Shown: positions 30,842-51,687, counted from the first letter of the stretch. The stretch is DNA of 64,000 nucleotides from Bacteroidota bacterium (GCA_049515655.1 JBEKTW010000012.1:8904-72903), one strand, 5' to 3'. The notes: generated by a model not told the origin, from the sequence alone. Made by a program: numbers and translations.

Positions 30842-31036
30842 ATGACAAAGGGTTCCAGTAATCTAATATACGTTCTATCATAATATACGATTTTTTCTGA
30901 TAAGATACTTGACGAAGATCACATAGAACCTTTTTCCCAACGGGAAACCGGCAGCGGGAGAAGTGCTCTATACGGATTGTTTTGCCCATAATAATAAATC
31001 ATATTACGCAGAGCTATAATTCTAAATGAAAAATAG

Positions 31037-31327: not shown

Positions 31328-31366
31328 GTTGCTTTACGTAACGTCACTTAATAATTTCATAGAGAT

Positions 31367-35675: not shown

Positions 35676-35710
35676 CCATTCACCATTACCTTGAGATGAT
35701 CAAGCTCGTC

Positions 35711-36943
35711 TCAGGTGAATTTCAGCCGCCTGACTGCCTCGAGCGTCGGCTCGATCACCGTGCCTGCACCCGCAACTTTCATCGCGCTTGCGATATCTTT
35801 CAAGCCGTTGCCGGTCAGCACGCACACGACTGTCTCATCCGATTTGACGAGACCGCCTTTGACTGCCTTTTTTAATCCCGCGTACGCGGCCGAGGCCGCA
35901 GGTTCGGAGAAAATCGCTTCGCCGCGCGCGAGTTCCGGAATCGCCGCGAGAATCTCATCGTCGCTCACTGTAAGGTATGCCCCCCCGGTTTCGCGCACGG
36001 CACGCACAGCACGCACACCGTCGCGCGGCATATCCGCGCTGATAGAATCCGCAACGGTTTGCGCATTGACGGCAGTGATCTTTTCTGTTCCGGCTTTCCA
36101 CGCGTTGTAACAGGCGGCCGAGCCTTCCGCTTGAATGCCCATGAGTTTCGGCATCCTGTCAATCCAGCCCAGGGCGAGCAAATCACGCAAGCCCTTCCAC
36201 AAACCGCTGATGATATTACCGTCGCCGACCGAAACGAAAATGGAGTCGGGCGTTTTCCAGCCTAGTTGTTCACACATCTCAATGGACGCGGTCTTCTTTC
36301 CTTCCACCGTATACGGGTTGAATGCAGTATTGCGGCAATACCAGCCGAATTCTTTCGAGACCTCCAGGCACAGGTCAAAGGCCTGGTCGTACGTACCTTT
36401 GACAAGGATGATGCGCGCACCGAAAATCAGCAGTTGGGCAATTTTCGCCTTCGGGGCCGTCTGGGGGACAAAAATCACCGCGGGCATTTTCGCAGCAGCG
36501 GCGAGACCTGCGAGCGCGGCGCCCGCATTACCGGTGCTTGCGGTTGTGATGACTTCAACACCCAGCTCACGCGCCTTTGCTACAACGACTGCGCTCGCAC
36601 GGTCCTTAAACGACGCGGTCGGATTGCGACCGTCGTCCTTGAGATACAGATGGCGCAATCCCAATCGTGGACCAAGAGTCGTCGAACGATAGAGCGGCGT
36701 CCAACCGACGTGAATCGGCGGCGCGGATGTGCGTGCATCGTCGAGCGGCAGAAGCGCCGAGTATCGCCAGATGGAGTAGTCGCGCGAATCGGAGATCGCA
36801 CGCGGAGAAGTTGATTCGTTGATTCGTTTGTAATTGAAAATCGTATCGAGGATACCATCAGACCCATGGTTGGGACAAACATAACGCGTGGTCCGGGGGT
36901 CGTACTCCGAGCCACATAGGGTACATTTGAAATGATAGTTCAT
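35711..36943 (-). CDS. threonine-synthase-like PLP-dependent enzyme (fold type II) with N-terminal Zn-ribbon
   Basis: PLP-lysine motif PTASFKDRA. Glycine-rich loop TASTGNAGAALA. N-terminal C-x2-C...C-x-x-H ribbon (MNYHFKCTLCGSEY..YVCPNHG). Start moved to the internal ATG at 36943. Confidence 0.75.
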   Translation of the reverse strand: MNYHFKCTLCGSEYDPRTTRYVCPNHGSDGILDTIFNYKRINESTSPRAISDSRDYSIWRYSALLPLDDARTSAPPIHVGWTPLYRSTTLGPRLGLRHLYLKDDGRNPTASFKDRASAVVVAKARELGVEVITTASTGNAGAALAGLAAAAKMPAVIFVPQTAPKAKIAQLLIFGARIILVKGTYDQAFDLCLEVSKEFGWYCRNTAFNPYTVEGKKTASIEMCEQLGWKTPDSIFVSVGDGNIISGLWKGLRDLLALGWIDRMPKLMGIQAEGSAACYNAWKAGTEKITAVNAQTVADSISADMPRDGVRAVRAVRETGGAYLTVSDDEILAAIPELARGEAIFSEPAASAAYAGLKKAVKGGLVKSDETVVCVLTGNGLKDIASAMKVAGAGTVIEPTLEAVRRLKFT

Positions 36944-36968
36944 ATGGAGACAACCACCTTCGAGATCA

Positions 36969-37985
36969 TTACCGTGTGATGTGCGTTCCGGTTTCACCGC
37001 GCAAGGCGCGCCCGATGTTTTCGGGATTCGTGATTATCGCGTGCTTGCCGCCGGCTTCGAGGAACCAGATGATCGCTTCAATCTTGGGAGCCATAGAACC
37101 TCTGGCAAAATGCGTGCCTTCCGCAAGATACCGTTTCGCCTCTGCTAGCGTTATCTTATCGAGCCATTGCTGATTCGGTTTGCCAAAATTAATTGCCACT
37201 TTCTCGACCGCCGTCGCAATCAGAAATAAATCGGCTTTGACTTTACTCGCGAGAAGACTGCTTGCAAAGTCCTTGTCGATAACTGCCGCGGTGCCCCGAT
37301 ACTCGCCATCGCCGACATCAATAACCGGTATCCCGCCGCCGCCAACCGTGATGACAATGATGCCCTGGTTCAGAACGGCTTCGATGGTTGACAGCTCGAC
37401 GATTTCTGCGGGCATAGGTGACGGAACCACGCGCCGCCAGCCGCGACCCGCATCTTCGACGACGCTCCAGTCCATTTCAGTTTTACGCCGCATCGCTTCA
37501 GCTTGATCCATGAATCCGCCGATGGGCTTCGATGGATGCTGGAAAGCCGGGTCCTTTTGATCTACCAGCACCTGCGTGATAATCGTCGCACATTGTTTCT
37601 TAATACCGCGATGATACAACTCGTTCTGCAGCGCTTGCTGCAATTCGTACCCGATCGCGCCCTGCGTATCCGCGCCGCATACATCAAGAGGAACTTCGTG
37701 CATTCCTTCGACTTTGGCGGCTATTTCGGAGCGGCGCAGGATGAAACCGACCTGCGGTCCATTGCCATGCCCGATTGCAACATCCCAACGTTGCTCGATC
37801 ATATCGGCGACATGATGTGCAGTTTCGCGTAATGCGCTTTCCTGATCTTCGACCGACTGGTGCTTTGTATCTTTGATGAGCGAGTTGCCGCCAATGGCGA
37901 TCACCGCGAGTTTGCGTTTGGGAACGCCGGGCCTTCTCCTGACAATTTTCCTCACCCTCTTCATTGTCTTCTTTTTCTTTGCCAT
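36969..37985 (-). CDS. arcC: carbamate kinase with a Lys/Arg-rich N-terminal extension
   Basis: CK core (KLAVIAIGGNSL..., VAIGHGNGPQVG, VITVGGGGIPV, GSMAPKIEA) preceded by MAKKKKTMKRVRKIVRRRPGVPKR. The track's longer N-terminus (38054) translates a repeat array and is rejected. Confidence 0.85.
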   Translation of the reverse strand: MAKKKKTMKRVRKIVRRRPGVPKRKLAVIAIGGNSLIKDTKHQSVEDQESALRETAHHVADMIEQRWDVAIGHGNGPQVGFILRRSEIAAKVEGMHEVPLDVCGADTQGAIGYELQQALQNELYHRGIKKQCATIITQVLVDQKDPAFQHPSKPIGGFMDQAEAMRRKTEMDWSVVEDAGRGWRRVVPSPMPAEIVELSTIEAVLNQGIIVITVGGGGIPVIDVGDGEYRGTAAVIDKDFASSLLASKVKADLFLIATAVEKVAINFGKPNQQWLDKITLAEAKRYLAEGTHFARGSMAPKIEAIIWFLEAGGKHAIITNPENIGRALRGETGTHITR

Positions 37986-38034
37986 GATTATTGTCCTTTT
38001 TTTGCCTTCGATAACCAGGTAACTACTCAACCAA

Positions 38035-38098
38035 TCAACGATCCAACTACCCAACTATTCAACTACTCAACGATCCAACCACTCAACTATTCAACTAT
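38035..38098. repeat. 32-bp tandem direct repeat x2 (tcaacgatccaactacccaactattcaactac)
   Basis: Two adjacent units differ at 3 positions. Same CAACTA-type 8-mer family as the arrays around the 39.1-39.8 kb cassette. Confidence 0.6.
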
Positions 38099-38106
38099 CG
38101 CACTAT

Positions 38107-39087
38107 TTAACCCATCGTCAATGCCATCGCCGCTTTCTGGGCGTGCATCCGATTTTCAGCTTCATCGTACACAACCGAGTTGGGTCCATCCATTACGCCG
38201 TCGGTCACTTCGATGTTGCGGTCGGCGGGAAGCGGATGCATGTAAATTGCATCGGGTTTTGCCAGCTTTAGCCGTCGCTCGTCCATAATCCACGACGAGT
38301 ATTTGCCGATGATTTTTGCGCCTTCTTTTTCGTCCGCCGTGTGGACCATCGCGCCCCACGACTTAGCGTAGACGACGTCGGCGCCCTTCATCGCGGCATC
38401 CATATCGTTAACCACCTCGAAGCCTGCGCCAAATTTCTTCGCTTGCTCACGCGCTTGATCCATGATCTCCGGCATCAGTTTAAATTCCGGAGGATGCGCA
38501 AGGACGACATCCATTCCAAAGCGCGGCATTTGCAGGATGAGTGATTGCGGTACCGACATCGGTTTCTGGTACGAGGAGGCGTATGCCCATGACACGACGA
38601 TCTTCTTGCGGCGCAGATCGCGTCCCTTCTTTTCGACAATCGTCATCAGGTCGGCGAGTATCTGGTACGGGTGATAGACGTCGCACTGCATATTCAGGAC
38701 CGGCACCCGCGAGTGTTTTGCAACTTCATTGATGTATTTGTTGCCGACGCCCCAGTCCACATGGCGGATGGCGATGCCGTCGAAATACCGGCCAAAAATT
38801 TCTCCGATTTCCTTCGGCGTGTCGCCGTGCGCAATCTGCGTCGACCGCGACTCGATGAATGCCGCGTGCCCGCCGAGTTGTGCCATCCCTGCTTCAAAGG
38901 AACCGCGCGTACGCGTGCTGGAGAAAAAGAATAGCATGGCGAGGACTTTATCGCGCAGCACTGCCTGCGATTCATTCAACGCGCGTTTGCGTTTTAAATC
39001 AAAAGCAACGTCGAGGACAGTTTCAACTTCTTCTTTGCTGAAATCGAGATCGCCGATTAAATCACGGCCATGTAGGTATGTTTGCAT
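38107..39087 (-). CDS. transcarbamylase (ATCase/OTCase superfamily), substrate unknown (YgeW-context paralog 1)
   Basis: STRTR carbamoyl-phosphate motif (FFFSSTRTRGSFEAG), HPYQ and HPLP motifs. 326 aa. Adjacent to carbamate kinase. Confidence 0.8.
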   Translation of the reverse strand: MQTYLHGRDLIGDLDFSKEEVETVLDVAFDLKRKRALNESQAVLRDKVLAMLFFFSSTRTRGSFEAGMAQLGGHAAFIESRSTQIAHGDTPKEIGEIFGRYFDGIAIRHVDWGVGNKYINEVAKHSRVPVLNMQCDVYHPYQILADLMTIVEKKGRDLRRKKIVVSWAYASSYQKPMSVPQSLILQMPRFGMDVVLAHPPEFKLMPEIMDQAREQAKKFGAGFEVVNDMDAAMKGADVVYAKSWGAMVHTADEKEGAKIIGKYSSWIMDERRLKLAKPDAIYMHPLPADRNIEVTDGVMDGPNSVVYDEAENRMHAQKAAMALTMG

Positions 39088-39102
39088 GGGTTCTTCTTTC
39101 GT

Positions 39103-39174
39103 TTGATAGTTCGATAGTTAAATAGTTCAATAGTTAGATAGTTGGATAGTTCAATAGTTCGATAGTTGGATCGT
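39103..39174. repeat. 8-bp-period tandem array (NNATAGTT) of about 9-11 units
   Basis: tgatagtt cgatagtt aaatagtt caatagtt agatagtt ggatagtt caatagtt cgatagtt ... It continues degenerately into the 3' end of the adjacent four-helix-bundle gene. Confidence 0.7.
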
Positions 39175-39597
39175 TCAGTCGTTTGGTGGTTTCTTCGTTG
39201 GATCGTCGGAGCGTTGTTTGTTCGATGCTGAGCCGTGTTCGCGAAGATACGCGATGAATGCATTCATGAGTTGTTTCGCTTCAGTTGCCAAATTGTAAAC
39301 GGCATCCATTTGTTCTTGCGTGACGTACTTGCGATCAAGCGCGAGGTTCAATTCAGACTGTACTTCGCTGGCTGAGCGGCGCGCAATCTTTAGAAACCGG
39401 ATGAATTCCGGATTATAGCCAGAATCGAAGCCCTCTGCTATATTGTGCATCACTGATCCTGCCGCCGCCTGAATCTGATCCCGTAGCCTAAAGTCTTTCG
39501 CAAATCGTGTTCCTTCAGTGAGATCATAGATCGCGTTTGCCAATTTCCGCGCCTTATGCCAACACTCTAGATCTTCAAAGTGTCTGATTGTCCCCAT
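39175..39597 (-). CDS. four-helix-bundle protein (23S rRNA intervening-sequence protein family, TIGR02436/PF05635-like), copy 1
   Basis: MGTIRHFEDLECWHKARKLANAIYDL...RDQIQAAAGSVMHNIAEG...FLKIARRSASEVQSELNLA matches the family consensus. The gene is AT-richer than its flanks. The track start at 39612 is a TTG. Confidence 0.8.
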   Translation of the reverse strand: MGTIRHFEDLECWHKARKLANAIYDLTEGTRFAKDFRLRDQIQAAAGSVMHNIAEGFDSGYNPEFIRFLKIARRSASEVQSELNLALDRKYVTQEQMDAVYNLATEAKQLMNAFIAYLREHGSASNKQRSDDPTKKPPND

Positions 39598-39770
39598 AAA
39601 AATCCTCCCCAACTGTCGAACAATTGAACGACCAAACGATCCAACGATTCAACAACCGAACAATCCAACTACCCAACTACTTAACTACGCAACCACACAA
39701 CTGTACGTTATTCAACGCCCGAACGATCTAACGACCCAACTATTTAACTACTCAACTACGTAACTGTAAG
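39598..39770. repeat. 8-bp-period array (NAACNANN / CAACTAYN), about 20 units, inverted relative to the 39103-39174 array
   Basis: gaacgacc aaacgatc caacgatt caacaacc ... caactacc caactact taactacg. The reverse complement of 39103-39174 aligns with it (shared ccaaacga, gaacgatccaac, caactat). Confidence 0.65.
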
Positions 39771-40751
39771 TTATTCAACAGCACCCAAAACGAGCGAGAT
39801 CAACCCCATTTTCAGGACGACGCCGTAGAATGCTTCCTGCCAGTAGCGCGCCCAGCGGGTAATGTCGACGTCCGGAGGAATCTCATCCATGCGTGGAAGC
39901 GAGTGGAGTAATATCATATCACTCTTTGCCTTGCTCATCAATAGCTCGCGCGTGATCTTGAAATTCGCCGGCGTGAGCGGTCGATCCTTCGTGGCTTCCT
40001 GTCGCGACTGCGAATAATCGGCCTGGATCACCGGCTCGACCAGAATCACATCGGCGTTCGCGATCGCCTGCTCGACGTGCTCCGCTTCGCTAAAGTTAAG
40101 TCCGTACTTCTTGAAATCCGCCTTGTATTCTTCCGGCATTCGCATGTCGGGCGAGTTTGGGAAAAGCGCATTCGGGGCCGGGCCGACGAAAGTGATGGGA
40201 CAATCGAATTGTGTAAGCGCATATCCGAGCGAGTGCATCGTGCGCATTCGCATGTCCCCAACGGCAAGCCAGCGCAGACCGTCAATGCGTCCGCGTTCGC
40301 GGAGGACCGTATAGAGGTCGGTGAGAATCTGGGTCGGGTGTTCGCCCCAGCCGTCACCGCCGTTGATGATCGGTACAGACGACCATTTCGCGGCCTCGTG
40401 CGGCGCCCCTTTCTGAAAATGGCGCATTGCAATCACGTCACCGTAGAACTCGAGCATCTTCACGGTGTCTTTGATGCTCTCCTGATAGTAATCGCCGGCG
40501 CGCGTCATTTTGGCGTCGGCAAAACCAGTAACGTGTCCGCCGAGGCGGTGCATGGCGGCTTCGTGGGAAAGACGCGTGCGCGTGCTGGGCTGATAGAACG
40601 CAGTCACGAGCGTCTTACCCTTGAGCATATCACTGTTCTGGCGATTGCGGGCGATCGGCTCCAGACGTTCCGCAATTTCAAACACGCGGAGGAACTCGCT
40701 TCGTTCAAATTCTTTAAGCGACAGAATGTCGCGACCGATGAAACTACGCAT
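39771..40751 (-). CDS. transcarbamylase (ATCase/OTCase superfamily), paralog 2
   Basis: STRTR motif (FYQPSTRTRLSHEAA), HPTQ, and an HSLP variant of the HPLP/HCLP motif. 326 aa. Confidence 0.8.
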   Translation of the reverse strand: MRSFIGRDILSLKEFERSEFLRVFEIAERLEPIARNRQNSDMLKGKTLVTAFYQPSTRTRLSHEAAMHRLGGHVTGFADAKMTRAGDYYQESIKDTVKMLEFYGDVIAMRHFQKGAPHEAAKWSSVPIINGGDGWGEHPTQILTDLYTVLRERGRIDGLRWLAVGDMRMRTMHSLGYALTQFDCPITFVGPAPNALFPNSPDMRMPEEYKADFKKYGLNFSEAEHVEQAIANADVILVEPVIQADYSQSRQEATKDRPLTPANFKITRELLMSKAKSDMILLHSLPRMDEIPPDVDITRWARYWQEAFYGVVLKMGLISLVLGAVE

Positions 40752-40831
40752 TGTGAAATTCTCCTTTTGTTTTGATGATTACCATTTTCAAACACTCTAC
40801 TCAGGCTCTTGGCTGTTAGCCCTTGGATTAC

Positions 40832-41383
40832 TTACACAATTTCCGACAACAATTCCTTCCTTGGCTGCGGGATAACGACCTTATTGACGAGAAGTCCTTT
40901 CTCCGCAACGATCGCCGCACCCGCGTCGACTGCCGATTGGACGGCGGCGACTTCGCCCGTCAGCGTGAGAAAGGCCTTTCCCCCCAGCGCCATGGCAAGC
41001 CGGATTTCGATCAATTGCACGCGCGCGGCCTTGACGGCGGCGTCGGCGGCTTCGATGAGCGCTGCCACGGAAAATGACTCCACAATCCCCAATGCTTCGA
41101 GCAGGTCGACTTTACTCGTGCCGCCGATTGCGGGAAAAACCGCGGCGTGCACATTCGGGATGACGAACGTGTCAATCACCGAACCCTGTGCAGCGACGCA
41201 TCCCGCTTCGACACTCGAGGTCACTGCGGCGACATCTCCCCCGACAAGCACCATGTACTTGCCCGAGCAGATTGTCCGCGAAAGGATGATTTCCACTTCC
41301 GCTGCTTTGAGCATTGCATCGGCGGCCTGGTAACCCGCCGCAATGCTCGTGAGTTCGATGAGGCCGATGGAGGTCTTAGTCAT
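40832..41383 (-). CDS. pduT: tandem BMC-domain shell protein, PduT-like (BMC-T with the single conserved pore cysteine)
   Basis: Two BMC domains (IGLIELTSIAAGYQAADAMLKAAEVEIIL...GGDVAAVTSSVEAG and LGIVESFSVAALIEAADAAVKAARVQLIEI...TGEVAAVQSAVDAG). The TICSGK motif corresponds to the [4Fe-4S]-ligating Cys of PduT. 183 aa. Confidence 0.85.
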   Translation of the reverse strand: MTKTSIGLIELTSIAAGYQAADAMLKAAEVEIILSRTICSGKYMVLVGGDVAAVTSSVEAGCVAAQGSVIDTFVIPNVHAAVFPAIGGTSKVDLLEALGIVESFSVAALIEAADAAVKAARVQLIEIRLAMALGGKAFLTLTGEVAAVQSAVDAGAAIVAEKGLLVNKVVIPQPRKELLSEIV

Positions 41384-41453
41384 AAAAACGTTCCATGATT
41401 GACGATGGATGATTGATGTCGGCCTTTAGCCCTTGGCTTCTGGCCTTTGGCAT
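41384..41453. repeat. low-complexity repeat (gatgattga units plus ggcctttagcccttggcttctggcctttggc)
   Basis: The reverse complement of 41811-41847 is about 85% identical to 41421-41451. The two flank four-helix-bundle gene copy 2 as inverted repeats. Confidence 0.6.
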
Positions 41454-41810
41454 TTAACTCTTAGAGATTTTCGATATCAGGGCGTTCGTCATCTTTTGCT
41501 CTGACGTCAGTAATCCTGCAACTTTTTCCACTTTCTCGGCTGGGACAAGACAGAGCTCTTGAAGAATCTGTATTTGAGTCTCAAGTTCAAACGCAGAGCC
41601 CATTGATAGCTCCAAGAATCTTTTGAATTCAATCTCACTATTTCTGCTACAGCCTTCTGCGATATTGGACGGAATTGAAACTGCGGCCCTGCACATTTGA
41701 GCCTTCAATCCGTACTGTTCTTCTTTCGGAAGTAATTTCGCAAGATCATACACTTGCTTCACAATCTCAATTCCATCCCTCCAAATAGTCAATTTTCTGA
41801 AGTCTCTCAT
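41454..41810 (-). CDS. four-helix-bundle protein (23S rRNA IVS protein family), copy 2
   Basis: MRDFRKLTIWRDGIEIVKQVYDLAKLLPKEEQYGLKAQMCRAAVSIPSNIAEGCSRNS..FKRFLELSMGSAFELETQIQIL is a textbook family match. About 43% GC. Confidence 0.85.
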   Translation of the reverse strand: MRDFRKLTIWRDGIEIVKQVYDLAKLLPKEEQYGLKAQMCRAAVSIPSNIAEGCSRNSEIEFKRFLELSMGSAFELETQIQILQELCLVPAEKVEKVAGLLTSEQKMTNALISKISKS

Positions 41811-41847
41811 CTTGCCTCCCAAAAGCCAAGAGCCAATGGCTAATAGC
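41811..41847. repeat. inverted partner of repeat 41421-41451 (ccaaaagccaagagccaatggctaatagc)
   Basis: Contains the 15-mer ccaatggctaatagc, whose exact reverse complement gctattagccattgg occurs in the 45438-45543 repeat. Confidence 0.55.
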
Positions 41848-43192
41848 TTTCTATTGTCACACTCTTCCCCACACTCTTCACCACTCCGTCAATACTCGCA
41901 TGCACTCTCGCCCCGAGTTTTCCTTCGGGAATTTCTCCGATGCACTGGCCTTTCACGACCATGTCGCCGGGGCGGACGATCGCGAGCGCCGGAAATCCCA
42001 TGTGCTGGGAGAGCGGAATCTCGACCTTCGACACCGTGATGTGCTTTTTGATGAACTCCGAGGGATGGTCGTAGTCGGTCACACCGAGACGTTTCACGAG
42101 TTGCCTCAGCGGCGTTCGCCTCCCCTCATACATGGGATGAGGTTGAACGTCCATATTCCCCGACCATTTGATTCCCTGTTCCTTCAAATCGTGTTTTGCC
42201 TTGTCGCAAGCTTCTTTGGGAAACAGGCTTTCAGGACACGCGTACAACGTGCAGAGCCCGCACGAGCAGCAGAGCTCTGCGTACTGATTCCAGATATTCT
42301 CTCCGGTCGTTGTAAACGAGAGACTCCGCATCACTTTGTGCGGCTGGATGTCGTAGCCGAGGAGGTAGCGCGGACACAATTCCGTGCAGTACGTGCACTG
42401 GTCACATGCTGATTTCCCTATCCGGTGCATCGATTTTTCCGGTTGACGCTTCCGCTGCACAAGAGTATGCTCAATCGGAAGAACCACCAAACCCGCCACC
42501 GTCTTTGTGATGGGAAGGTCAAGATTAAACTCCAATCTCCCCATCATGACACCGCCGACGAAGACCGCGAATCCCTTCGAGCCGTCGTAGGAGAACCCGC
42601 CCGCCGCTTCAATCGCTTTCGCGAAACTCATACCGATCGGTGCGAGAAAGGAACCCGGGTTCCTGACGGCGCCTGCGACGGTGAGGAATTTTTCCGTGAC
42701 CGGGTGACCTTCCGCCGCACGGACGATATTGTAGAGAGTCTCGACATTGTTGACCACGACGCCGACGTCGAGCGGAATTCCTTTCGGAGGGATCAGGCGC
42801 TTCGTCGCCTCATACACGAGGATGTATTCATCGCCGGATGGATAGAAATCTCCCAACAGATGGAACTTGGGATTATGCTTGGGATTATTGGCATGATTGG
42901 GATTATTGGAACTTAAGGCCGTGGAGAGTGCGTCGATAGCGAGCTTGTTCTTCTGCTTGATTCCAATGATCCCGGAACCCGCTCCCGTCGATTCCATGAG
43001 GAGTTGCAATCCCCGGACGACTTCCCCCGGATAATGGAGCATCAGTTCATAGTCCTTATGAATCAACGGCTCGCATTCGGCTCCGTTGGCGATGACGCAC
43101 CCGACCTTCGCGGAGGCCTTGACGTGTGCCGGGAATCCGGCTCCGCCCGCGCCGACAACCCCGGCGTTGCGTATTTTCTCTGAAATGCTCAC
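41840..43192 (-). CDS. RnfC/NuoF-like Fe-S flavoprotein, PduS-like
   Basis: GAGGAGFP NADH/FMN-site motif near the N-terminus. Two 4Fe-4S ferredoxin motifs (CDQCTYCTELCP; CCSCGLCTLYACP). 450 aa, GTG start. Lies immediately upstream of the PduT-like gene, as pduS-pduT do in pdu operons. Confidence 0.75.
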   Translation of the reverse strand: MSISEKIRNAGVVGAGGAGFPAHVKASAKVGCVIANGAECEPLIHKDYELMLHYPGEVVRGLQLLMESTGAGSGIIGIKQKNKLAIDALSTALSSNNPNHANNPKHNPKFHLLGDFYPSGDEYILVYEATKRLIPPKGIPLDVGVVVNNVETLYNIVRAAEGHPVTEKFLTVAGAVRNPGSFLAPIGMSFAKAIEAAGGFSYDGSKGFAVFVGGVMMGRLEFNLDLPITKTVAGLVVLPIEHTLVQRKRQPEKSMHRIGKSACDQCTYCTELCPRYLLGYDIQPHKVMRSLSFTTTGENIWNQYAELCCSCGLCTLYACPESLFPKEACDKAKHDLKEQGIKWSGNMDVQPHPMYEGRRTPLRQLVKRLGVTDYDHPSEFIKKHITVSKVEIPLSQHMGFPALAIVRPGDMVVKGQCIGEIPEGKLGARVHASIDGVVKSVGKSVTIESY

Positions 43193-43248
43193 AGATGAAG
43201 ATTCAATTCAGAGGTTAAAATAAGAAACAATGCCGGAAGTTCCAAGAA

Positions 43249-44715
43249 TCAGCCCGCCCTGCCGACTTCGCCGTTGAACTCCTCAATCAGCTTGTCAAAA
43301 TAGGCGACTTCGTCCTCAAAGATTGCCCGCCAGTACCCGGGATCCCATTGTGCGTCCAGTTCTTCGGAAGACTTCCCCTGCTGTTCCACCCACGTGAAGT
43401 ACTTGAGATGGTGAATCGCCTTTCTTTCGTAGTACGTGAGCTCCTTGAAGAAATCGATGCCCTGGTGCAGAAGCGGTCCGGCATGGTCCTTTGCCGCATC
43501 GACGAGGGAATAGCTCCCACGTTCCTCACGAAGTTCTTTCAGCCGGGACCGGTACAATTCAACAGAGTCCGTGAAAATCGTGAAAACCACATCATTGCTC
43601 TTCAACTCGAAGTGCTTTGCCGTTTTTATTGCAGCAAGAAGATTTGAAATGCTCGAAATGCCCAACAGCGGCAGTCGTTCCAACTCGGCAGCCGATACTC
43701 CATTACCCCGAAGGTACTTCTTCCCGGCATCATCATTAAAGAGCCGCAGCACTCTCATGCAATCTTCATCGTCGATGGCAGCCACGGCGTCGGTATTCAG
43801 GACGTTATGAACCCACGGCACATGTTTATCGCCGATCCCTTCGATCCGGTGCGCACCGTATCCGTTCATGAACAGCGTGGGGCACTGCAATGCCTCTGAA
43901 GCAACGACCTTCAGATGCGGAAATTGTTTCTTGAGGTAATCTCCCGCGGCGATCGTTCCTGCTGAACCGGTCGCCGAGATGTACGCGGCAGCGTTTGCAT
44001 TTTTCATATTGAGGGAATGGAACGCTTCTTCTATTGCCGGTCCCGTAACGCTGTAGTGCCAGATCGGGTTGCCAAATTCTTCAAACTGATTGAAAATCAT
44101 GTTGACGGGATCGTTCTTCAGCTCCCAGCATTTGTCGTAAATTTCCTTCACGTTGGATTCGGTCCCGGGTGTCGCAATGACTTCAGCGCCGATCTCTTCC
44201 AGCCATTCGAATCGCTCCTTCGACATTCCCTCGGGCAGGATCGCGACGGCGGTGCAATCCAGCAGCGCGCAATCGAAAGCCCCACCCCGACAGAAATTAC
44301 CGGTCGACGGCCAGACGGCTTTGTGCTCTTCGGGGTCGAACTCACCGCTCACCAGTCGAGGCACGAGGCAGCCGAACGCCGCACCGACTTTGTGCGCTCC
44401 GGTCGGAAAGTATTTCCCGACCATTCCGATGATGCGCGCATCCACCCCCGTTATCGATTTCGGTATTTCGACATAGTTCACAGGTCCGAATGAACCGGTG
44501 CGAATATCATTCTTCCATGATATCCGGAAAAGGTTGAGAGGATTGACGTCCCACAGTCCGACCTTGGAGAGTTTCTTTTTAATCGACGCCGGAATTTTCG
44601 CCGGGTCTCTCATTTGCGCGAAGGTCGGAATCACGATTCCCCGCTTCTTGCATCGACGGGCAGTTTTCTTGATAACTTCCGGGGAAATGTTCTTTATAAT
44701 CTTCGATTTCTTCAT
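43249..44715 (-). CDS. PLP-dependent enzyme, fold type II (tryptophan-synthase-beta/cysteine-synthase superfamily), 488 aa
   Basis: Candidate PLP-lysine region FPTGAHKVGAAFG. Glycine-rich phosphate loop ISATGSAGTIAAG. Exact function unknown. Confidence 0.65.
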   Translation of the reverse strand: MKKSKIIKNISPEVIKKTARRCKKRGIVIPTFAQMRDPAKIPASIKKKLSKVGLWDVNPLNLFRISWKNDIRTGSFGPVNYVEIPKSITGVDARIIGMVGKYFPTGAHKVGAAFGCLVPRLVSGEFDPEEHKAVWPSTGNFCRGGAFDCALLDCTAVAILPEGMSKERFEWLEEIGAEVIATPGTESNVKEIYDKCWELKNDPVNMIFNQFEEFGNPIWHYSVTGPAIEEAFHSLNMKNANAAAYISATGSAGTIAAGDYLKKQFPHLKVVASEALQCPTLFMNGYGAHRIEGIGDKHVPWVHNVLNTDAVAAIDDEDCMRVLRLFNDDAGKKYLRGNGVSAAELERLPLLGISSISNLLAAIKTAKHFELKSNDVVFTIFTDSVELYRSRLKELREERGSYSLVDAAKDHAGPLLHQGIDFFKELTYYERKAIHHLKYFTWVEQQGKSSEELDAQWDPGYWRAIFEDEVAYFDKLIEEFNGEVGRAG

Positions 44716-44969
44716 TTTGATGTCCTCATTTACTATGGTTAATTGATATCAAGCTCTAAGGGGTTCTTCGTTCTTTGTCATTGGTTCTTAGTCATTGGTC
44801 ATTGCTCTCAGCTTTTGGCTCTTAGCTATTGGCTACCAGCTTCTGAATTCTGTCTTCTGTCTACTTGGTTCCTTGTTCTTTGTTATTGGTTCTTCGTTCT
44901 TTGTCATTCGTCACTGGTCATTAGTGCGTTGTTCCTGCTTCCGTCATCCATCTTCCATCATCCATCGTG
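44716..44969. repeat. modular low-complexity repeat (ttctttgtcattggtt..., ttttggctcttagctattggc, cagcttctgaattctgtcttctg)
   Basis: Same orientation and same modules as 45438-45543, making direct repeats that flank the CoA-binding gene. Confidence 0.6.
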
Positions 44970-45437
44970 TCAAATTCTCCCAAACATCCTCATAAGGAAT
45001 CGATGGAAACCGTGCGCTCCTTTCGGATCGACGAACATAAATAGACATCTGCCGGTTATTACCTCTGCGCCGGTGTCCTTTGCAATTTGAATGGATTTCT
45101 GGGTTTCCGACATCTGTTGAAACCAGATAATCTCGAAACGCCTGTTTGCCACTTGTTCCATCAAAGCGTCGGTGGCACGACGGGGAGTCGCCACAAAGAG
45201 ATTCCTTACAGTTTGTGGAATACCTGCAATACTGGGATTGCATGCCACGCCGTCGATTTGAGTCGCTTCGGGGTGAACCGGATGCACCGAATAGCCATGA
45301 GTTCGAAGATGTTCGAAAAGCTTGTATCCAAATTTCTTCTTATCTCTTGATACTCCTGCAATGGCAATGTCTCTGGCCGAGAGGAATTTTTGAATCAGCT
45401 CCGAAGAGGTCATCCGGTCAATCATGTTCTTTGTCAT
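44970..45437 (-). CDS. CoA-binding domain protein (YccU/YneT-like)
   Basis: IAIAGVSRDKKKFGYKLFEHLRTHGYSVHPVHP matches the CoA_binding-domain consensus (IAVVGAS..P.R.G..V...L...GY.V.PVNP). About 48% GC, lower than its flanks. Confidence 0.7.
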   Translation of the reverse strand: MTKNMIDRMTSSELIQKFLSARDIAIAGVSRDKKKFGYKLFEHLRTHGYSVHPVHPEATQIDGVACNPSIAGIPQTVRNLFVATPRRATDALMEQVANRRFEIIWFQQMSETQKSIQIAKDTGAEVITGRCLFMFVDPKGAHGFHRFLMRMFGRI

Positions 45438-45543
45438 TGGTCATTGGTTCTTGCTTTTGGCTTTTGGCTTTTGGCTATTAGCCATTGGCCTTGGGCTGCC
45501 GGCTTCTGAATTCTGTATTCTGACTACTGGGCTTCTAATTGAC
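45438..45543. repeat. modular low-complexity repeat, direct partner of 44716-44969
   Basis: catgttctttgtcattggtcattggttcttgcttttggcttttggcttttggctattagccattggcc...ccggcttctgaattctgtattctg. Confidence 0.6.
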
Positions 45544-46869
45544 TTACAGTCTCTTCCATAACTCCGCCGCACACTCGCGCGCCCGAGCGTTGATACGTTC
45601 TTCGTCGATATTGAGCATCAACCGGCGGCCTTCCATCAATACATTTCCGCTCACAATCGTCGTGTCTACGGCAAACTGCGACGCTCCGAACAACAGATGA
45701 CCGAAGACGTTTGTGCCGTCGATCGGCGTCGTGGCATCATAATCGATGATGGCAATATCGGCAGCACACCCTTCACGCAGCTCTCCCAGCGGGACACCGA
45801 AGATTTGCCCGCCAATCGCCGGATTGTTCACGAAGAGCGCGTTCGTCACCTCGGACCATCCAATCGACGGGTTGCTTCCGCGGAGGTGCTGCATCCAGAG
45901 CGCAACGCGCAATTCTTCAAGCATGTTCGTCGTCATCGCATCCGTTCCGAGCCCGACGCGTATGCCGCGTTTCTGCATGGCAATAATGTCGGCGATTCCC
46001 ACGGCATTGTTCCCGTTCGATTGCGGGTTGTGAACGACCGTTGTACCCGTGCTTGAAAGAATATCCATCTCTTTCTCATCACAGTGCACACAGTGCGCAG
46101 CGATCGTCTGCTGCCCCAGTACATCAAATTTCTTCAACCTTTCAACGACCCGCATGCCGAAATGCTGCTCGGCGTACTCTTCGTCGCTCGCCGCTTCGGC
46201 GACGTGGACGTGAAAACCGGTCTTGAGGTCGCGTCCCAGCCTCGAAGCCGCCTCCAGGGTGTTGTCCGACAAGGTAAACGACGCGTGAAGTCCGAACAGA
46301 GCAGACACCGTGTGATCATTTCGACCCGTGCACTCGCGAATAAACTCTGCATTTTCATCCAATCCCTCTCTCGCAATTCGATCACCATCTCTGTCCGAAA
46401 GTTCATAGCAGAGACAGGCTCGGAGCCCGGTTTCGCGGACCGCCCCCTCGATCGCCTTCAACGAACCGCGGACTGCCCCGGGGCTCGCATGATGGTCGAT
46501 AAGCGTCGTGGTGCCGTGCCGGATAGACTCAATCAGGGCGACGAGCGCGCTGTAGTAGCAGTCTTCGGTTGTGAGCGCGGAATCCAGGCGCCACCAGAGA
46601 TTTTTCAGAACACCGACAAAATCGCCGGCAGGTTTTGCCTTCGTCAGACCTCGTGCAAACGAGCTGTACAAATGCGTATGGGCATTGATGAAACCCGGCA
46701 CAACGAGCTTCCGGCGTGCATCGATTCGCTCGGCCCCCTTTCCAATCTTGTCACCTTCCGGGACAATCCTGCTGATCCGTCCATCCTCGACGAGAACGGA
46801 ATGACCGTGAAGAACCTCGGGCGACTTCCCGAGCGTAACCAACGTTCCATTTTCAATGATAAGTGACAT
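45544..46869 (-). CDS. ssnA: SsnA-family amidohydrolase (chlorohydrolase/aminohydrolase), paralog 1
   Basis: HxH metal motif (PGFINAHTHLY). SsnA-specific block LKNLWWRLDSALTTEDCYYSAL...TTLIDHHASPGAVRGSL. Start set at internal ATG 46869 (MSLIIENG), 5 nt after the upstream gene's stop. Confidence 0.8.
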   Translation of the reverse strand: MSLIIENGTLVTLGKSPEVLHGHSVLVEDGRISRIVPEGDKIGKGAERIDARRKLVVPGFINAHTHLYSSFARGLTKAKPAGDFVGVLKNLWWRLDSALTTEDCYYSALVALIESIRHGTTTLIDHHASPGAVRGSLKAIEGAVRETGLRACLCYELSDRDGDRIAREGLDENAEFIRECTGRNDHTVSALFGLHASFTLSDNTLEAASRLGRDLKTGFHVHVAEAASDEEYAEQHFGMRVVERLKKFDVLGQQTIAAHCVHCDEKEMDILSSTGTTVVHNPQSNGNNAVGIADIIAMQKRGIRVGLGTDAMTTNMLEELRVALWMQHLRGSNPSIGWSEVTNALFVNNPAIGGQIFGVPLGELREGCAADIAIIDYDATTPIDGTNVFGHLLFGASQFAVDTTIVSGNVLMEGRRLMLNIDEERINARARECAAELWKRL

Positions 46870-46873
46870 CGAT

Positions 46874-49372
46874 TCATCCTTCTTGTAAAAGTGAGAGTTC
46901 ACGCCTGGACCTGTCCCGCATGGAGATTGCACCGGAGAAGCATTTCTGGGCACATAATGAGCAGCCGACGCATCGGGCAGGATCGAACTGCGGAATCCTA
47001 TTCTTATCCAGTTCGATGGCCTCGTATGCGCACCGCGTGCAATTGCCGCAGTGCTGACACAATTCGTGCACAACCGTCGGGATCTTCTTTGTCGCAGTAA
47101 GCTCACCGAATCCTGTGATGGGATCGGGCAGCGCAGAACCGATCAGCGCTTCCACGGACCGGATTCCGCGTTCTTCCATCAGATAGCTCAGTCCGGAGTG
47201 CAGTTCGTCGACGATGCCGTAGCCGTACTTCATGGCGATCGTGCAGAACTGAACTGTCCGAACGCCGAGCGCGAGAAAATTAGCTGCCGACTTGTAGTCC
47301 ATTGGCCCACCGTTGCCGGAGACCGTGATCCCCATGCCCGAGACCTTGGCCAGCGTCAGATTGCTGATCGGCAGAACACCTTCACCCGACATACCAACGA
47401 CAACTCCTTCGTCCCACGTTCGCTTCTTCCCACGGCGGAATGCAAGCGATGGAAAACTGTTCGCCAGCGTGACACCCGCCTTCTTGCGTGGATACCGGGA
47501 AAAAACCTCCTTGATAGCGCTCACAATCGGATAAATGGCGGTGACGGCCGCCGTCAGTTTGAAGAGCTTCGGGACATCGGCGCTTCCGGCCTGCATCACC
47601 CAGTCGACGATCTTGGCAGTCAGTTCTGCGTCCTGGGAGACGATGTCGCCCTTGGTGCCGTCTCCGCCCTGCGGGCATGAAAGACTGTATTCGATCCCCA
47701 TGACACCGGCGGATTCAAGTTTCCGGGTGTTCGACTGCCATGCTGCGCTATCCTTCTCGTCATCACCTGTTACCGGCCCGCCGGTCGAGGCGGCAGTCAA
47801 CCGGTCGGGGAACTCACGTCGCAGACGTTCGACTTCACGCCGAACGCGGTCGAGCGCATGGCCCGATACATTGTCGCAATTCGCATATGTCGACCTTGAG
47901 AATGCAAACATATACTCGGACGGAATGTGAATCGGAACATTATCGAAAGCGGTCTTCATGATACCACCAGCCCAGCCCGACTCGTACGCTCTTTTCATTT
48001 GATTGTACCCGTCAGTGGGCGGGCCCGCAGAAAGCAGAAAAGGAGAAAGAATTTTACGACCGAAGAAATCAGCTGTCAGCGGAACCGGAATCATCAACCG
48101 ACCCGGCATGACGGTGCGGTTCTTGGTTGCCTTTTCAATCCGTTTGGCGGAGTGGCCGGACACGAAAGCGTCGAGTTCCAGAGCGGCGTTCTTGCCGGCA
48201 GCTACTGCTTCGACGACCGTCGTCGGACCGTTGACCATGTCGCCCGCATAAAAAACGCCTTTCGTATGCGACATCTGAAGGGAAGACCGTGCACCGGCGG
48301 CAATAATCACGAAGTCGACATCCGGGCGCGTTTGCTCGGTTCCTTTGAGATCGACGACGTTGCTCGGATGGAATTTCTTTCCCTTCGGCAGGGTAACCTT
48401 CTGCGTCCGCAAACCGGTGATGCGCCTTCCGCTCCTCAGGATTTCCAGCACCCTCACTCGTCCGCTGACCGCAATACCCGTTTCTGCAATTGCATGACGC
48501 TCCTTGGCCGTGAGGGGCATCTCAGACCATGTCTCGAGCGCAAACATCTCCACGAATGTTGCACCTCGTGCAAGCGCCTCCTCAGCGCAGTCGAGCGCCA
48601 CTGCTCCGCCTCCGATGACTGCCACGCGCTTTCCCTTCACCGTGAATCGGGACGGGTCGCGGAGATAGTCCATCCATTCGACGGCCACGCTGCTGTTCTC
48701 CATCTTCGGAGTAAAGGACTCATCGAGGCCCGTCGCTACCAGAATGGCATCGTATCCGTTTCTTGATGCAGGAGACCATTTGCCCTTCTTGAACGTAATA
48801 TCACCAAGCAACTTCAGGAAATCGATATCGGTTTTGAGAACTTCCGGCGACAATCTAGATTCCGGGATGAGACGACACATGCCGCCGGGCTGCTTTGTCG
48901 TGTCCATAACGTCGACAGCGTACCCCTTCTGTGCGAGCAATGACGCAGCGCCGAGACCCGCCGGACCGGCGCCGTAGACTCCGACCTTGTTTCCATTTGA
49001 ATCCGCCTTTTCAAACTCAGGCATGACGCCAAGCTGTTTTGCTTTTTCAATGATTGTTGCCTGGACGGCCGGAATATTCACCGCGGAGTCGAACGTCCGG
49101 TGAACGCAGGCCTTCATGCAATGCCGGTCGGGACAAACTGCGCCGCAAACACCGCCGAGAGGATTACTTCCCATGATGAGCGCGGCGGAGCGTTTGAAAT
49201 CGGAATGACTGCCTGCCTTCACGGCCATAATAAAGTCCGCGGGCGAACAATCGACAGGGCATGCCTCCTTGCACGGCTTCTCTTCGCAATACTCGCATTT
49301 CTCGACCTCGGCGCGGAGTTGAGCGTCAGTGAGAAATCCTGTAACGCAATTCGTTTTTTTTACCTTGGTCAT
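46874..49372 (-). CDS. YgfK-like Fe-S flavoprotein (dihydropyrimidine-dehydrogenase-like fusion: GltD-like FAD/NAD domain, DHOD-like TIM barrel, 2x[4Fe-4S])
   Basis: N-terminal Cys clusters. Dinucleotide fold VGVYGAGPAGLGAASLLAQKGYAVDVMD. C-terminal ferredoxin pair CQHCGNCTRCAYEAI...CVGCSLCAQKC. ATG at 49372; the track's 49411 is a TTG. Confidence 0.8.
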   Translation of the reverse strand: MTKVKKTNCVTGFLTDAQLRAEVEKCEYCEEKPCKEACPVDCSPADFIMAVKAGSHSDFKRSAALIMGSNPLGGVCGAVCPDRHCMKACVHRTFDSAVNIPAVQATIIEKAKQLGVMPEFEKADSNGNKVGVYGAGPAGLGAASLLAQKGYAVDVMDTTKQPGGMCRLIPESRLSPEVLKTDIDFLKLLGDITFKKGKWSPASRNGYDAILVATGLDESFTPKMENSSVAVEWMDYLRDPSRFTVKGKRVAVIGGGAVALDCAEEALARGATFVEMFALETWSEMPLTAKERHAIAETGIAVSGRVRVLEILRSGRRITGLRTQKVTLPKGKKFHPSNVVDLKGTEQTRPDVDFVIIAAGARSSLQMSHTKGVFYAGDMVNGPTTVVEAVAAGKNAALELDAFVSGHSAKRIEKATKNRTVMPGRLMIPVPLTADFFGRKILSPFLLSAGPPTDGYNQMKRAYESGWAGGIMKTAFDNVPIHIPSEYMFAFSRSTYANCDNVSGHALDRVRREVERLRREFPDRLTAASTGGPVTGDDEKDSAAWQSNTRKLESAGVMGIEYSLSCPQGGDGTKGDIVSQDAELTAKIVDWVMQAGSADVPKLFKLTAAVTAIYPIVSAIKEVFSRYPRKKAGVTLANSFPSLAFRRGKKRTWDEGVVVGMSGEGVLPISNLTLAKVSGMGITVSGNGGPMDYKSAANFLALGVRTVQFCTIAMKYGYGIVDELHSGLSYLMEERGIRSVEALIGSALPDPITGFGELTATKKIPTVVHELCQHCGNCTRCAYEAIELDKNRIPQFDPARCVGCSLCAQKCFSGAISMRDRSRRELSLLQEG

Positions 49373-49608
49373 CTGATCACCCTCTTTCTTTTGATCACGT
49401 GGAGTCTTCAATTACTCGACCTGAATTTCGATCTGCCGCTGGGAGTCATCGAGAGTTTGAATGGCTCTTGCGATCTGATCGTGTCCTGTCCAACGGCACA
49501 GATTACTGCTAATTGCGGTGTGCATATCGTTTCCCGTGTTTGTGAAGTGCGAGCGTAAGCGAACATTTGGGCGAGGGGATCAAACCACAAACACCGTGTT
49601 AGGCGAGG

Positions 49609-50010
49609 TCATTTGCTCTGCTCAATGTCATCTAAAAAATCCAAAAGATGATCCCGCACAACAACAAATGAAGGACCCCCTCCAAATTCAACCCCTATCG
49701 CCGCTGCCTCCAACACCTCATCCCTTGTAGCCCCAGCCAAAATCGCATTGTTTGCATGGTTGGCAAGGCAAGGGATACATCTTGTAGCTACCGCAGCCGT
49801 GACGGCCATTAGCTCTTTTTGTTTTCTATCTAAAGCACCATGCTTGTAGTAGTGTTTTACCAATTCATTGAAACCATTGTAAAGGTTGGGTGCCTCCTTT
49901 TCCAAACGCTCTCTGTTGGCTTTTCTCTTTTTCAAAATATCTTTCACATTATGCATGGATTTACCTTCTATTTTATCATTCTGGGCCATTACTGCCTTAC
50001 ACTTTACCAT
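49609..50010 (-). CDS. carboxymuconolactone-decarboxylase/AhpD-like family protein (AT-rich insertion)
   Basis: AhpD-like core with CxxC-type motif (AAVATRCIPCLANHAN). About 43% GC versus about 58% for neighbours. Confidence 0.7.
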   Translation of the reverse strand: MVKCKAVMAQNDKIEGKSMHNVKDILKKRKANRERLEKEAPNLYNGFNELVKHYYKHGALDRKQKELMAVTAAVATRCIPCLANHANNAILAGATRDEVLEAAAIGVEFGGGPSFVVVRDHLLDFLDDIEQSK

Positions 50011-51202
50011 TCAATGTCGCGACGAACGCTGCGTAAAACGCGGCTGCTCGGCTGAGCTGCTCGATTTGACACGCTTCGTTCGGGGCGTGCGCATACAGTT
50101 CATTCCCCGGACCGAGCAGGAAACACGGGATACCGTGCATTCCGGCAATCGCAGTTGCGTTGCTGCTAAACGTCCACATGTCGACGTGAGGATCTTTACC
50201 GAACACTCCAGCGTACACTTCGACGGCGCTCTTGAGAAACGGAGAGTTTGCGTCCAGCGACCACGTCGGATAGTATTTTTCGGTTGGATACACCTTCCCG
50301 GTATATGCAGCGTCCTCGAAAATGAGCACGCTAACCTTCGCATCCTCGTAACCTGCGCGTCTGGCTGCTTCGTACACTTCAGCCACGGTGGTTTCTTTCG
50401 ATTCGTCCTGGGTCAACCGCCGGTCGAGACGGATGCTCGCGCCGTCCGGCACGGCGCAGATTGATGGAGACATGGAGCCGGCTTCAGTGACTGTGATCGA
50501 CCCCTTTCCCAAGAACGGATCGCTCCGCAGCCGCTCATTAAGCCTTTCGATTTCCAGCGCAATGCGCGCGATTTTATAGATGGCATTATCGCCGCGCTCG
50601 GGCGCGGAGCTGTGGCAGCTTCGTCCTTTCACTTCAACGCGCATCTCCATCCGGCCGCGATGACCGCGGTAGATGTTCATGTTCGTCGGCTCCGTAATCA
50701 CCACGAGCTCGGGCCGAAGGTGATCTTCCCTGATGAGGTGCTGCCAGCAGAGTCCATCGCAATCTTCTTCCATCACCGTGCCGGTGAAGTAAAGAGTGAA
50801 CGCGTCATTCAGATTCAGTTCTTTGATGAGCCTGGCCGCGGACAGCATCGCCGCCAGCCCGCCTTTCTGGTCGACAGTTCCGCGTCCCCACACCTTGCCG
50901 TCTGCCACCTTCGGGTCGAATGGGTCGAAGCTCCACTGCCCCCGGTCGCCTGCCTTCACGGTATCAACGTGTCCATCGAAGGCAATAGTTCTTGTTCCAC
51001 TGCCGATGCGTCCGATGATGCTCCCGAGTCCGTCAATCCTGATTTCGTCAAAGCCCACCTTTTCCATCTCTCGTCGGACAACCTGGACCGCCTCTTTCTC
51101 TTTCGACGAGAAGGATGGTGTACGAACGAGATCCATCAGAATCCGGACGGTGTCGTTTTCGATTTCCTTCGCTCGATCGTAAATGGCCTGGTATAAATTC
51201 AT
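49997..51202 (-). CDS. M20-family metallopeptidase/amidohydrolase (YgeY-like)
   Basis: M20 motifs (AFDGHVDTV; GRGTVDQKGG; TGTVMEEDC). Start at ATG 51202 (MNLYQAIYDRAKE); the track extension was rejected. Confidence 0.85.
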   Translation of the reverse strand: MNLYQAIYDRAKEIENDTVRILMDLVRTPSFSSKEKEAVQVVRREMEKVGFDEIRIDGLGSIIGRIGSGTRTIAFDGHVDTVKAGDRGQWSFDPFDPKVADGKVWGRGTVDQKGGLAAMLSAARLIKELNLNDAFTLYFTGTVMEEDCDGLCWQHLIREDHLRPELVVITEPTNMNIYRGHRGRMEMRVEVKGRSCHSSAPERGDNAIYKIARIALEIERLNERLRSDPFLGKGSITVTEAGSMSPSICAVPDGASIRLDRRLTQDESKETTVAEVYEAARRAGYEDAKVSVLIFEDAAYTGKVYPTEKYYPTWSLDANSPFLKSAVEVYAGVFGKDPHVDMWTFSSNATAIAGMHGIPCFLLGPGNELYAHAPNEACQIEQLSRAAAFYAAFVATLNGKV

Positions 51203-51225
51203 TCTTCCCGGGTTACTCTTCCCTC

Positions 51226-51687
51226 TCACTTTGCCGCATCCTTGATCGCTTCGACAATCTGAACGTAACCGGTGCACCGGCAGAGATTGCCCGAGATAGC
51301 GATTCGAATGTCCTCTTCGGAAGGATGGCCGTTCTTATCCAGCAATGCTTTCGCACTCATTAACATTCCCGGTGTACAGAAGCCGCAATGTGCTGCATCG
51401 TGGTCCATGAAAGATTCTTGAAGCGGGTCGAGTCTACCGTCCGAGATCAAACCCTCCACCGTCAGGATTTTTTTGCCGTCAATCTGAGGCGCGAGCACAA
51501 GACACGAATTCACGGCTGCTCCGTCGAGCAGAACCGTGCAGGCGCCGCATTCCCCCACTTCGCAACCGCATTTCGTTCCGGTAAATCCGAGTTCATCCCG
51601 CAGAATCTCAAGCAGCGTTCTGTCGGGGAAAATCGAGAGCACATATTCCCGACCGTTGATGGTTGTATGGATTGGGACTTGGGGCAT
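51226..51687 (-). CDS. molybdenum hydroxylase [2Fe-2S] small subunit (XdhC/CoxS-like)
   Basis: Plant-type ferredoxin motif CGCEVGECGACTV. Second cluster motif CGFCTPGMLMS...NLCRCTGY. Confidence 0.9.
   Translation of the reverse strand: MPQVPIHTTINGREYVLSIFPDRTLLEILRDELGFTGTKCGCEVGECGACTVLLDGAAVNSCLVLAPQIDGKKILTVEGLISDGRLDPLQESFMDHDAAHCGFCTPGMLMSAKALLDKNGHPSEEDIRIAISGNLCRCTGYVQIVEAIKDAAK

Follow-up and report, generated by a model that had tools for sequence, protein, structure and literature searches.

A cassette of about 427 nt (41421-41847; cassette 2) separates the PduS-like and PduT-like genes in the window, the whole 64,000-nt stretch of Bacteroidota bacterium DNA analysed here. In the sense direction it consists of an array of a 7-nt word, a ribosome-binding site, a PF05635 four-helix-bundle gene (IVP2), and an inverted array of the same word. 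By analogy to the ORF-bearing intervening sequences (IVSs) of 23S rRNA, we lean toward reading it as an IVS-type cassette that would be transcribed by read-through, fold into a stem, and be cut by RNase III. Coordinates of its parts and of related features are collected in Table 1.

The IVP2 protein matches positions 1-105 of the 106 in the PF05635 profile "23S rRNA-intervening sequence protein" (E = 1e-32; 113 bits, cut-off 33.8) and also the TIGR02436 profile "four helix bundle protein" (108 bits, cut-off 24), a full-length match that bears out the original prediction of a family member. The nearest solved structure is the pentameric XCC0516 (PDB 2GSC; E = 1.6e-23), and the isoelectric points of the IVPs in the window are near neutral (7.7 and 6.9). 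IVP2 lies on the operon strand (minus). Its GC content, given beforehand as 43%, is 41.7%; the PduS-like and PduT-like genes have 55.3% and 59.1%. The genes of 35700-51300 suggest a microcompartment locus for nucleobase catabolism: Fer2/Fer2_2, M20 peptidase, DPD-like oxidoreductase, amidohydrolase, two carbamoyltransferases, carbamate kinase, cytidine deaminase, two PLP enzymes, BMC-T, and the PduS-like protein.

Table 1. Features of cassette 2 and related elements in the window (nt, 1-based).
Feature	Coordinates	Strand	Basis
IVP2, 118 aa, PF05635/TIGR02436 four-helix-bundle gene, ATG start, intact	41454-41810	minus	
PduS-like flavoprotein gene (Complex1_51K, RnfC_N, 4Fe-4S), upstream flank	41840-43192	minus	
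PduT-like tandem-BMC-domain shell protein gene, downstream flank	40832-41383	minus	
Sense 5' arm, about 4.4 units of the 7-nt word, GCUAUUA GCCAUUG GCUCUUG GCUUUUG G	41818-41848	minus	
Sense 3' arm, 5 units, GCCAAAG GCCAGAA GCCAAGG GCUAAAG GCC; partner of 41818-41848	41421-41455	minus	
Shine-Dalgarno-like GGGAGG, 4 nt 5' of the IVP2 ATG	41815-41820	minus	read from sequence
Extra short array, 14-nt direct repeat, sense CAUCAAU-type heptamers, between 3' arm and PduT-like start	41388-41415	minus	
Solo array of the 7-nt word, 3'-arm orientation, between PduT-like and next gene	40804-40827		
Solo array of the 7-nt word, 3'-arm orientation; possible alternative 5'-arm partner (20/25)	44803-44840		
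Solo array, GCTTTTG x 3.4; possible alternative 5'-arm partner (20/25)	45452-45490		
Cassette 1, IVP1 gene 39175-39597, inverted 8-nt arrays 39101-39176 / 39627-39780	39101-39780	minus	
Decayed cassette 3, PF05635 N-terminal and middle fragments only	51690-51890	minus	

Both arms of cassette 2 step by 7 nt: motif matches in the 5' arm fall at 41818, 41825, and 41832 on the minus strand, and the 3' arm is a TRF repeat of period 7 with 5.0 copies. The best-matching portions (41426-41450 and 41819-41843) are 25 nt each and 84% complementary with 368 nt between them, close to the 85% originally given for the flanks. As had also been noted, the right flank, which is the sense 5' arm, takes in the stop codon of the PduS-like gene (41840-41842; last codons ESY*). 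In the predicted fold, GGGAGG comes at the inner end of the stem and shares 2 nt with the 5' arm. Written as RNA, the repeat word is (GGCUUUU)n for IVP2 and (GGUAGUUG)n for IVP1.

The complementarity of the flanks exceeds what their composition yields. Their local-alignment score of 30 is reached by none of 2000 dinucleotide shuffles (mean 15.6, maximum 27), and the arm duplex energy of -48.9 kcal/mol (-32.2 +/- 4.5 in shuffles) is equalled or bettered in 2 of 1000. When the sense strand of 41400-41870 is folded, a long-range stem enclosing the ORF is predicted in both the MFE and the centroid structure, with about 26 bp and three 1x1 mismatches (z = -2.8 for the region), so that the proposed folding of the flanks holds up. 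When both strands of the 64-kb window are scanned, nothing complements the right arm better than the left arm does (21/25); the next-best complements (20/25) are all further arrays of the same 7-nt word, and the near-equal 5'-arm partners among them sit 3 kb upstream. Arrays of this word without an ORF occur in four other intergenic regions of the same operon. Nor do the flanks prove to be ordinary promoters or terminators: 40700-42000 contains no sigma-70-like promoter and no intrinsic-terminator-like site on either strand. No Rfam family, rRNA included, is found in the window.

Two further cassettes of this kind lie in the window. Cassette 1 has a predicted enclosing stem (fold z = -5.8), and its 3' arm differs by two 8-nt units between strains L001 and L002. 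Cassette 3 retains inverted 9-nt arrays (51699-51719 and 51863-51885; ATTGGAATG and CAATCTTCC) and a predicted enclosing stem, which suggests that ORF-less hairpins can arise through decay. The arms differ among all three cassettes. The view that cassettes 1 and 2 have a common architecture and different repeats thus stands, but not the corollary that the repeat sequence is free, since the word is conserved within a protein subfamily (see below).

Other arrays are found in the same DNA. The 8-nt CAACTA/TAGTTG arrays at 38021-38099, 39101-39176, and 39627-39780 include a middle one inverted relative to the other two, which could therefore pair either across IVP1 or across the carbamoyltransferase gene at 38107-39087, giving alternative structures of one transcript. 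Long, imperfect, ORF-less hairpins with shared TTCGGAT-type heptamers are present at 23205-23345 and 31030-31330, and CCTACCA is repeated 10 times at 23039-23110. The intergenic segments 44716-44969 and 45438-45543 consist almost entirely of successive 7-nt arrays; the former measures 330 nt in L001 and 254 nt in L002 and the window. Within the PduS-like coding region, a 9-nt tandem repeat at 42866-42909 produces the low-complexity insert NNPNHANNPKHNPK, which the L008 homologue lacks; short-repeat expansion of the intergenic kind seems to extend into coding sequence.

Operons related to that of the window identify the cassette as an insert. For PduS relatives with 54-94% identity, 80 loci were fetched, 72 of which have both genes on the fragment; in 59 of these 72 the PduS and PduT frames are no more than 60 nt apart, and cassette 2 therefore parts genes that normally adjoin, as had been proposed. 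Stop-to-start spacing at cassette-free junctions is about 2-30 nt and leaves no counterpart of the extra array at 41388-41415, which thus probably belongs to the inserted segment. Among the 72 loci, an IVP is at the junction only in L007, whose PduS is 94% identical. The closest database relatives of IVP2 (67-74% identical) are also situated between PduS-like and BMC-T genes; their hosts are Ignavibacteria-labelled MAGs and metagenome contigs with PduS 72-77% identical to that of the window, and their arms are made of the same word as cassette 2. Since four Ignavibacteria-type lineages at this PduS distance carry a cassette at the same junction, cassette 2 is taken to be an old insert, long resident in some lineages and missing from many others at equal distance. 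These Ignavibacteria-type relatives overturn an alternative that was considered, a recent insertion confined to L007 and the species of the window. Entry of the cassette into a pre-existing hairpin is likewise unsupported here, as cassette-free relatives have about 2-30 nt between the genes.

The same junction accepts other inserts. ORF-less hairpins of 120-190 nt fill it in several other lineages. In L008-L010 it holds instead a gene for a GxxExxY protein (TIGR04256; L008 4600-5424), around which a hairpin unit of about 100 nt occurs in three direct copies; the first unit begins within the native PduS stop region, and the predicted fold of the region (z = -8.3) has an enclosing stem. A hairpin related to this unit, but with no ORF, is found at the junction in L011 and L013. 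GxxExxY cassettes are represented by one distinct locus among the fetched DNA. No PADLOC defence model matches IVP2, IVP1, or the L008 GxxExxY protein. As to the insertion point of cassette 2, its first 5'-arm unit, AGCTATTAG (41840-41850, ESY*), differs by two bases from the end of PduS in the cassette-free L012, AGAAATTAG (3965-3979, ERN*), a likeness that suggests either microhomology at the insertion point or later homogenisation.

The cassette and its flanking genes have different histories. The operon DNA of the window and L007 is about 92.6% identical on both sides of the cassette, whereas blastn cannot align 41413-41781, the stretch that takes in the 3' arm and most of the body of IVP2; dN between the two is 0.35 for the IVP and 0.03 for PduS. 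Between L169 and L171, dS is lower for the IVP (0.13) than for PduS (0.47) and PduT (0.58). The IVP dN/dS for this pair is 0.14, and the ORF is under purifying selection, with what appears to be exchange or replacement of cassettes at a fixed site. Shine-Dalgarno-like sequences are retained inside the loop. The L007 allele has a predicted enclosing stem, yet the stability of its whole region is no greater than that of shuffles (z = -0.3). Six more contigs encode exactly the IVP2 protein, but the cassette is 100% identical in all of them and so provides no covariation.

The arrangement recurs throughout the protein family. PF05635/TIGR02436 proteins are very abundant (at least 7960 matches among 8000 scored candidates), and 80 loci in named genomes of many phyla, among the matches listed, were surveyed, with 79 genes compared. 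The 150 nt upstream of each gene were aligned locally with the 150 nt downstream, and mismatched flank pairs served as background; alignment scores were used instead of duplex energies because the energy background is very high (mismatched median -46 kcal/mol on 150-nt flanks), and energies, though significant (p = 1e-14), discriminate poorly. Of the 79 loci, 65% have an inverted-flank score above the 95th percentile of mismatched pairs, 34% above the 99th, and 18% above the 99.9th; the remaining 35% of genes lack significant inverted flanks. Among 225 control genes that neighbour them in these loci, the share above the 95th-percentile score is 4%. With its score of 30, cassette 2 falls between the 95th and 99th percentiles. 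Inverted similarity is greater than direct similarity in 62 loci and the reverse holds in 15 (p = 3e-6). Low-complexity words of 6-9 nt, repeated in tandem and different from one locus to another, make up the arms. In 76 of 79 cases the PF05635 gene has the orientation of its upstream neighbour, against a baseline of 84% (p = 5e-4), and the gaps around these genes have a median of about 55 nt; co-orientation and short gaps fit promoterless inserts that rely on host transcription. In 20 of the 27 strongest loci of L087-L166 the GT-rich arm is 5' of the gene (p = 0.02), a polarity that gene orientation alone does not explain because it is the same on both strands.

Which repeat word is present goes with the protein subfamily. 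Loci whose proteins are more nearly identical also have more similar arm 6-mers (Mantel r = 0.31, p = 5e-4), and dropping locus pairs with homologous neighbours leaves the result unchanged. Across phyla and operons, the 7-nt word TTGGCTN accompanies IVP2-like proteins and the 8-nt word NNTAGTTG accompanies IVP1-like proteins. IVP2-like proteins with TTGGCTN/TTAGCTN heptamers are found between PduS and PduT in the Ignavibacteria types and between hemCD and hemE in Flavobacteriaceae, and also in KSB1, Fibrobacteres, and Bacteroidales MAGs. The hemCD-hemE cassette is present in at least five Flavobacteriaceae genera, with Maribacter and Tamlana strains among its carriers, and two metagenome contigs (L087-L092, L172, L175), with the same word, a strongly variable number of units, and opposite arm polarity in L172. 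The IVP1 relatives, which are 73-83% identical and have arms of the same 8-nt word, constitute an independent replicate. An IVP1-like gene in an Anaerolineales MAG belongs to a different operon and has an arm of 12 x GGTAGTTG, and two others, from a Chloroflexi-labelled MAG and a metagenome contig, are each enclosed by a pair of carbamoyltransferase genes. In the Chloroflexi-labelled case (GCA_016219275.1; L184 977-4378) the order carbamoyltransferase, IVP1-like cassette, carbamoyltransferase, carbamate kinase recurs under another phylum label and with no microcompartment genes upstream, which points to horizontal transfer of this block or a binning error. As the word tracks the subfamily, arms and ORF are therefore inherited or moved as one unit. 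How many repeat units an arm has and how long it is vary freely from strain to strain.

The mechanism we favor for cassette 2 follows from these features by comparison with 23S rRNA. The cassette would be transcribed by read-through from the operon promoter, and its arms would pair within the polycistronic RNA. RNase III would then cut the stem, as it does in the 23S rRNA IVSs that encode the same protein family, splitting the transcript between its pduS and pduT parts and freeing an IVP mRNA with a ribosome-binding site and base-paired ends. Such cleavage would allow the host to tolerate the insert, and the mRNA levels of pduS and pduT could become uncoupled by it. We infer read-through, arm pairing, and the RNase III cut from the precedent of ORF-bearing 23S rRNA IVSs.

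The best point of comparison is the 23S IVS of Coxiella burnetii, a 428-nt element excised by RNase III, whose terminal stem has 28 bp and which contains an S23p ORF along with tandem heptamers that vary between strains; the function of IVS proteins is given as unknown (PMC4990558). As in the ORF-bearing IVSs of Coxiella burnetii and Leptospira, the loop of cassette 2 contains an S23p/PF05635 ORF in the sense of the host transcript. Stem and overall size also agree (about 26 bp and 427 nt, against 28 bp and 428 nt), and tandem heptamers on the 5' side, with strain-variable copy number, are common to cassette 2 and the Coxiella IVS. Cassette 2 differs in its site, the mRNA junction of two protein genes instead of helix 25 or 45 of 23S rRNA, in arms that are wholly composed of tandem words, and in a good ribosome-binding site that is kept in the loop, whereas that of the Coxiella IVS is weak and lost on cleavage. 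RNase III excision is known for the Coxiella IVS and is predicted for cassette 2 from sequence alone. Because cassette 2 has the sequence-level features of an IVS except the location, we describe it as an element that would work like an IVS and not as a member of that class.

The arms themselves give no sign of selection on the sense RNA. Non-Watson-Crick arm positions family-wide number 51 G.U and 50 A.C, and hence there is no sense-RNA bias; duplex energies of sense and antisense strands do not differ in the family survey. Native arm pairs in six positional orthologs are no more stable than swapped pairs (-29.5 and -29.0 kcal/mol), so lineage-specific compensation is not seen among them, and the same comparison between the window and L007 favours neither clearly. 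With no RNA bias and no advantage of native pairs, the conserved feature may be the word itself, inverted on the two sides; conservation of the word explains arm complementarity as well as selection for pairing does.

These results bear on the main rival to an RNA-level role, a somewhat unlikely one in our judgement, in which the cassette is a DNA-level element whose inverted arrays are the protein-binding ends of a mobile or recombining unit and whose RNA stem is a by-product. Binding could fall to the IVP pentamer itself or to a trans-acting recombinase, comparable to proteins at the subterminal repeats of some transposons. It would account for a word that follows the protein subfamily over phyla and unrelated operons, for arms without compensation by lineage and with equal G.U and A.C positions, for presence or absence that varies among equally distant operons, for the decoupling of cassette history from the flanks, and for the similarity of the first arm unit to the native PduS end of cassette-free relatives. 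However, there is no catalytic domain within the cassette or beside it, and no transposase, integrase, or RT is in the gene list for +/-10 kb; cassette 2 shows no target-site duplication; strains differ freely in the number of units and the length of the arms; and the IVPs are near neutral. We know of no PF05635 family member for which DNA-binding or recombination activity has been demonstrated.

Standard criteria for transposons or MITEs give a mixed result. Terminal inverted repeats are present but are built of tandem words and variable in length; no direct repeat abuts the arms, whose boundaries are approximate and whose cassette-free comparators are distant relatives; and no transposase is found in or near cassette 2 (gene list for +/-10 kb), with copies compared within 64 kb of the genome. 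An integron gene cassette was rejected, as repeats are on both sides of the ORF and no integrase is present within +/-10 kb.

A role in serving the host is improbable. In that case the arrays would punctuate the mRNA, acting as processing or stability determinants that resemble REP/BIME, ERIC, and Correia hairpins and set the amounts of operon segments (enzyme versus shell protein), with the IVP as a passenger. ORF-less arrays of the same word elsewhere in the operon, the ORF-less hairpins at the PduS-PduT junction of other lineages, and long retention of cassettes at two unrelated operon junctions are consistent with it; 59 of 72 related operons work without an insert at this junction, though, and arm length is unstable between strains. 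Nor is the IVP a mere passenger, given that its ORF is under purifying selection and its ribosome-binding site is kept. Correia/NEMIS and ERIC elements are operon inserts with inverted repeats and hairpin transcripts, and Correia elements are reported RNase III substrates that alter mRNA stability; they are near-identical copies of 100-150 bp with defined terminal repeats, target duplications, and no ORF. The cassettes described here, in contrast, have tandem-word arms that differ between cassettes and a gene in the loop.

A chance match of low-complexity intergenic sequence, or an ordinary promoter or terminator, is very improbable: 7-9-nt tandem arrays are indeed abundant (63 TRF rows) and cassette 2 scores within the 95th to 99th percentiles, but no shuffle reaches that score, within the window each arm is complemented best by the other, promoter- and terminator-like sites are absent from the region searched, and the family-wide preference for inverted orientation is missing from control genes. 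Almost no credence attaches to IVP2 being an Avd-type accessory protein of a diversity-generating retroelement, for although PF05635 proteins resemble Avd, which has a homologous pentameric four-helix-bundle fold (PMC10053308; PDB 4DWL as cited there), there is no reverse transcriptase within +/-10 kb, the gene sits in a catabolic operon, and short chance direct repeats are found in place of a template/variable repeat pair.

Parts of the design are familiar from elsewhere. Cyanobacterial STRR heptamers are intergenic heptamer arrays, and Foldback-type transposons, which are eukaryotic and far larger, have inverted arms of short tandem subrepeats; to our knowledge neither has an established link to PF05635 genes. 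For the family itself, genes within cas operons, for example between cmr3 and cmr2, and insertions in CPR rRNA have been reported (PMC3936711; bioRxiv 10.1101/2024.02.27.582315). As far as the available sections of these reports extend, the genes are, like those considered here, wedged between unrelated genes at scattered sites and accompanied by ORF-less versions, and their co-occurrence is read as functional association or the ORF is merely listed; bracketing arrays and subfamily words are not described in those sections. In the literature searched, which includes few subscription-journal papers, no description of flanking arrays outside rRNA was found, and the family-wide arm-ORF-arm regularity appears to be undescribed before.

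A bolder extension, which we consider quite unlikely, is that PF05635 cassettes amount to a large class of elements, so far unrecognised, that move or maintain themselves with no canonical transposase. If so, the protein of each subfamily would recognise its own 7-9-nt word in RNA or DNA, and the unit would colonise operon junctions and rRNA helices, possibly via an end-paired RNA excised by RNase III; ORF-less hairpins would be decay products, and GxxExxY (TIGR04256) proteins a second family in the same niche.

For the window operon, cassette 2 places a predicted mRNA break point between redox enzyme and shell genes that are normally adjacent or overlapping. For the family, PF05635 members are typically promoterless, co-oriented inserts between inverted arrays of a subfamily-specific word. 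This insert design explains the presence of PF05635 genes in unrelated operons (microcompartment, heme, cas) and in rRNA, counsels caution with guilt-by-association labels such as "CRISPR-associated" for these genes, and makes the rRNA intervening sequences, a puzzle of long standing, part of something much broader.
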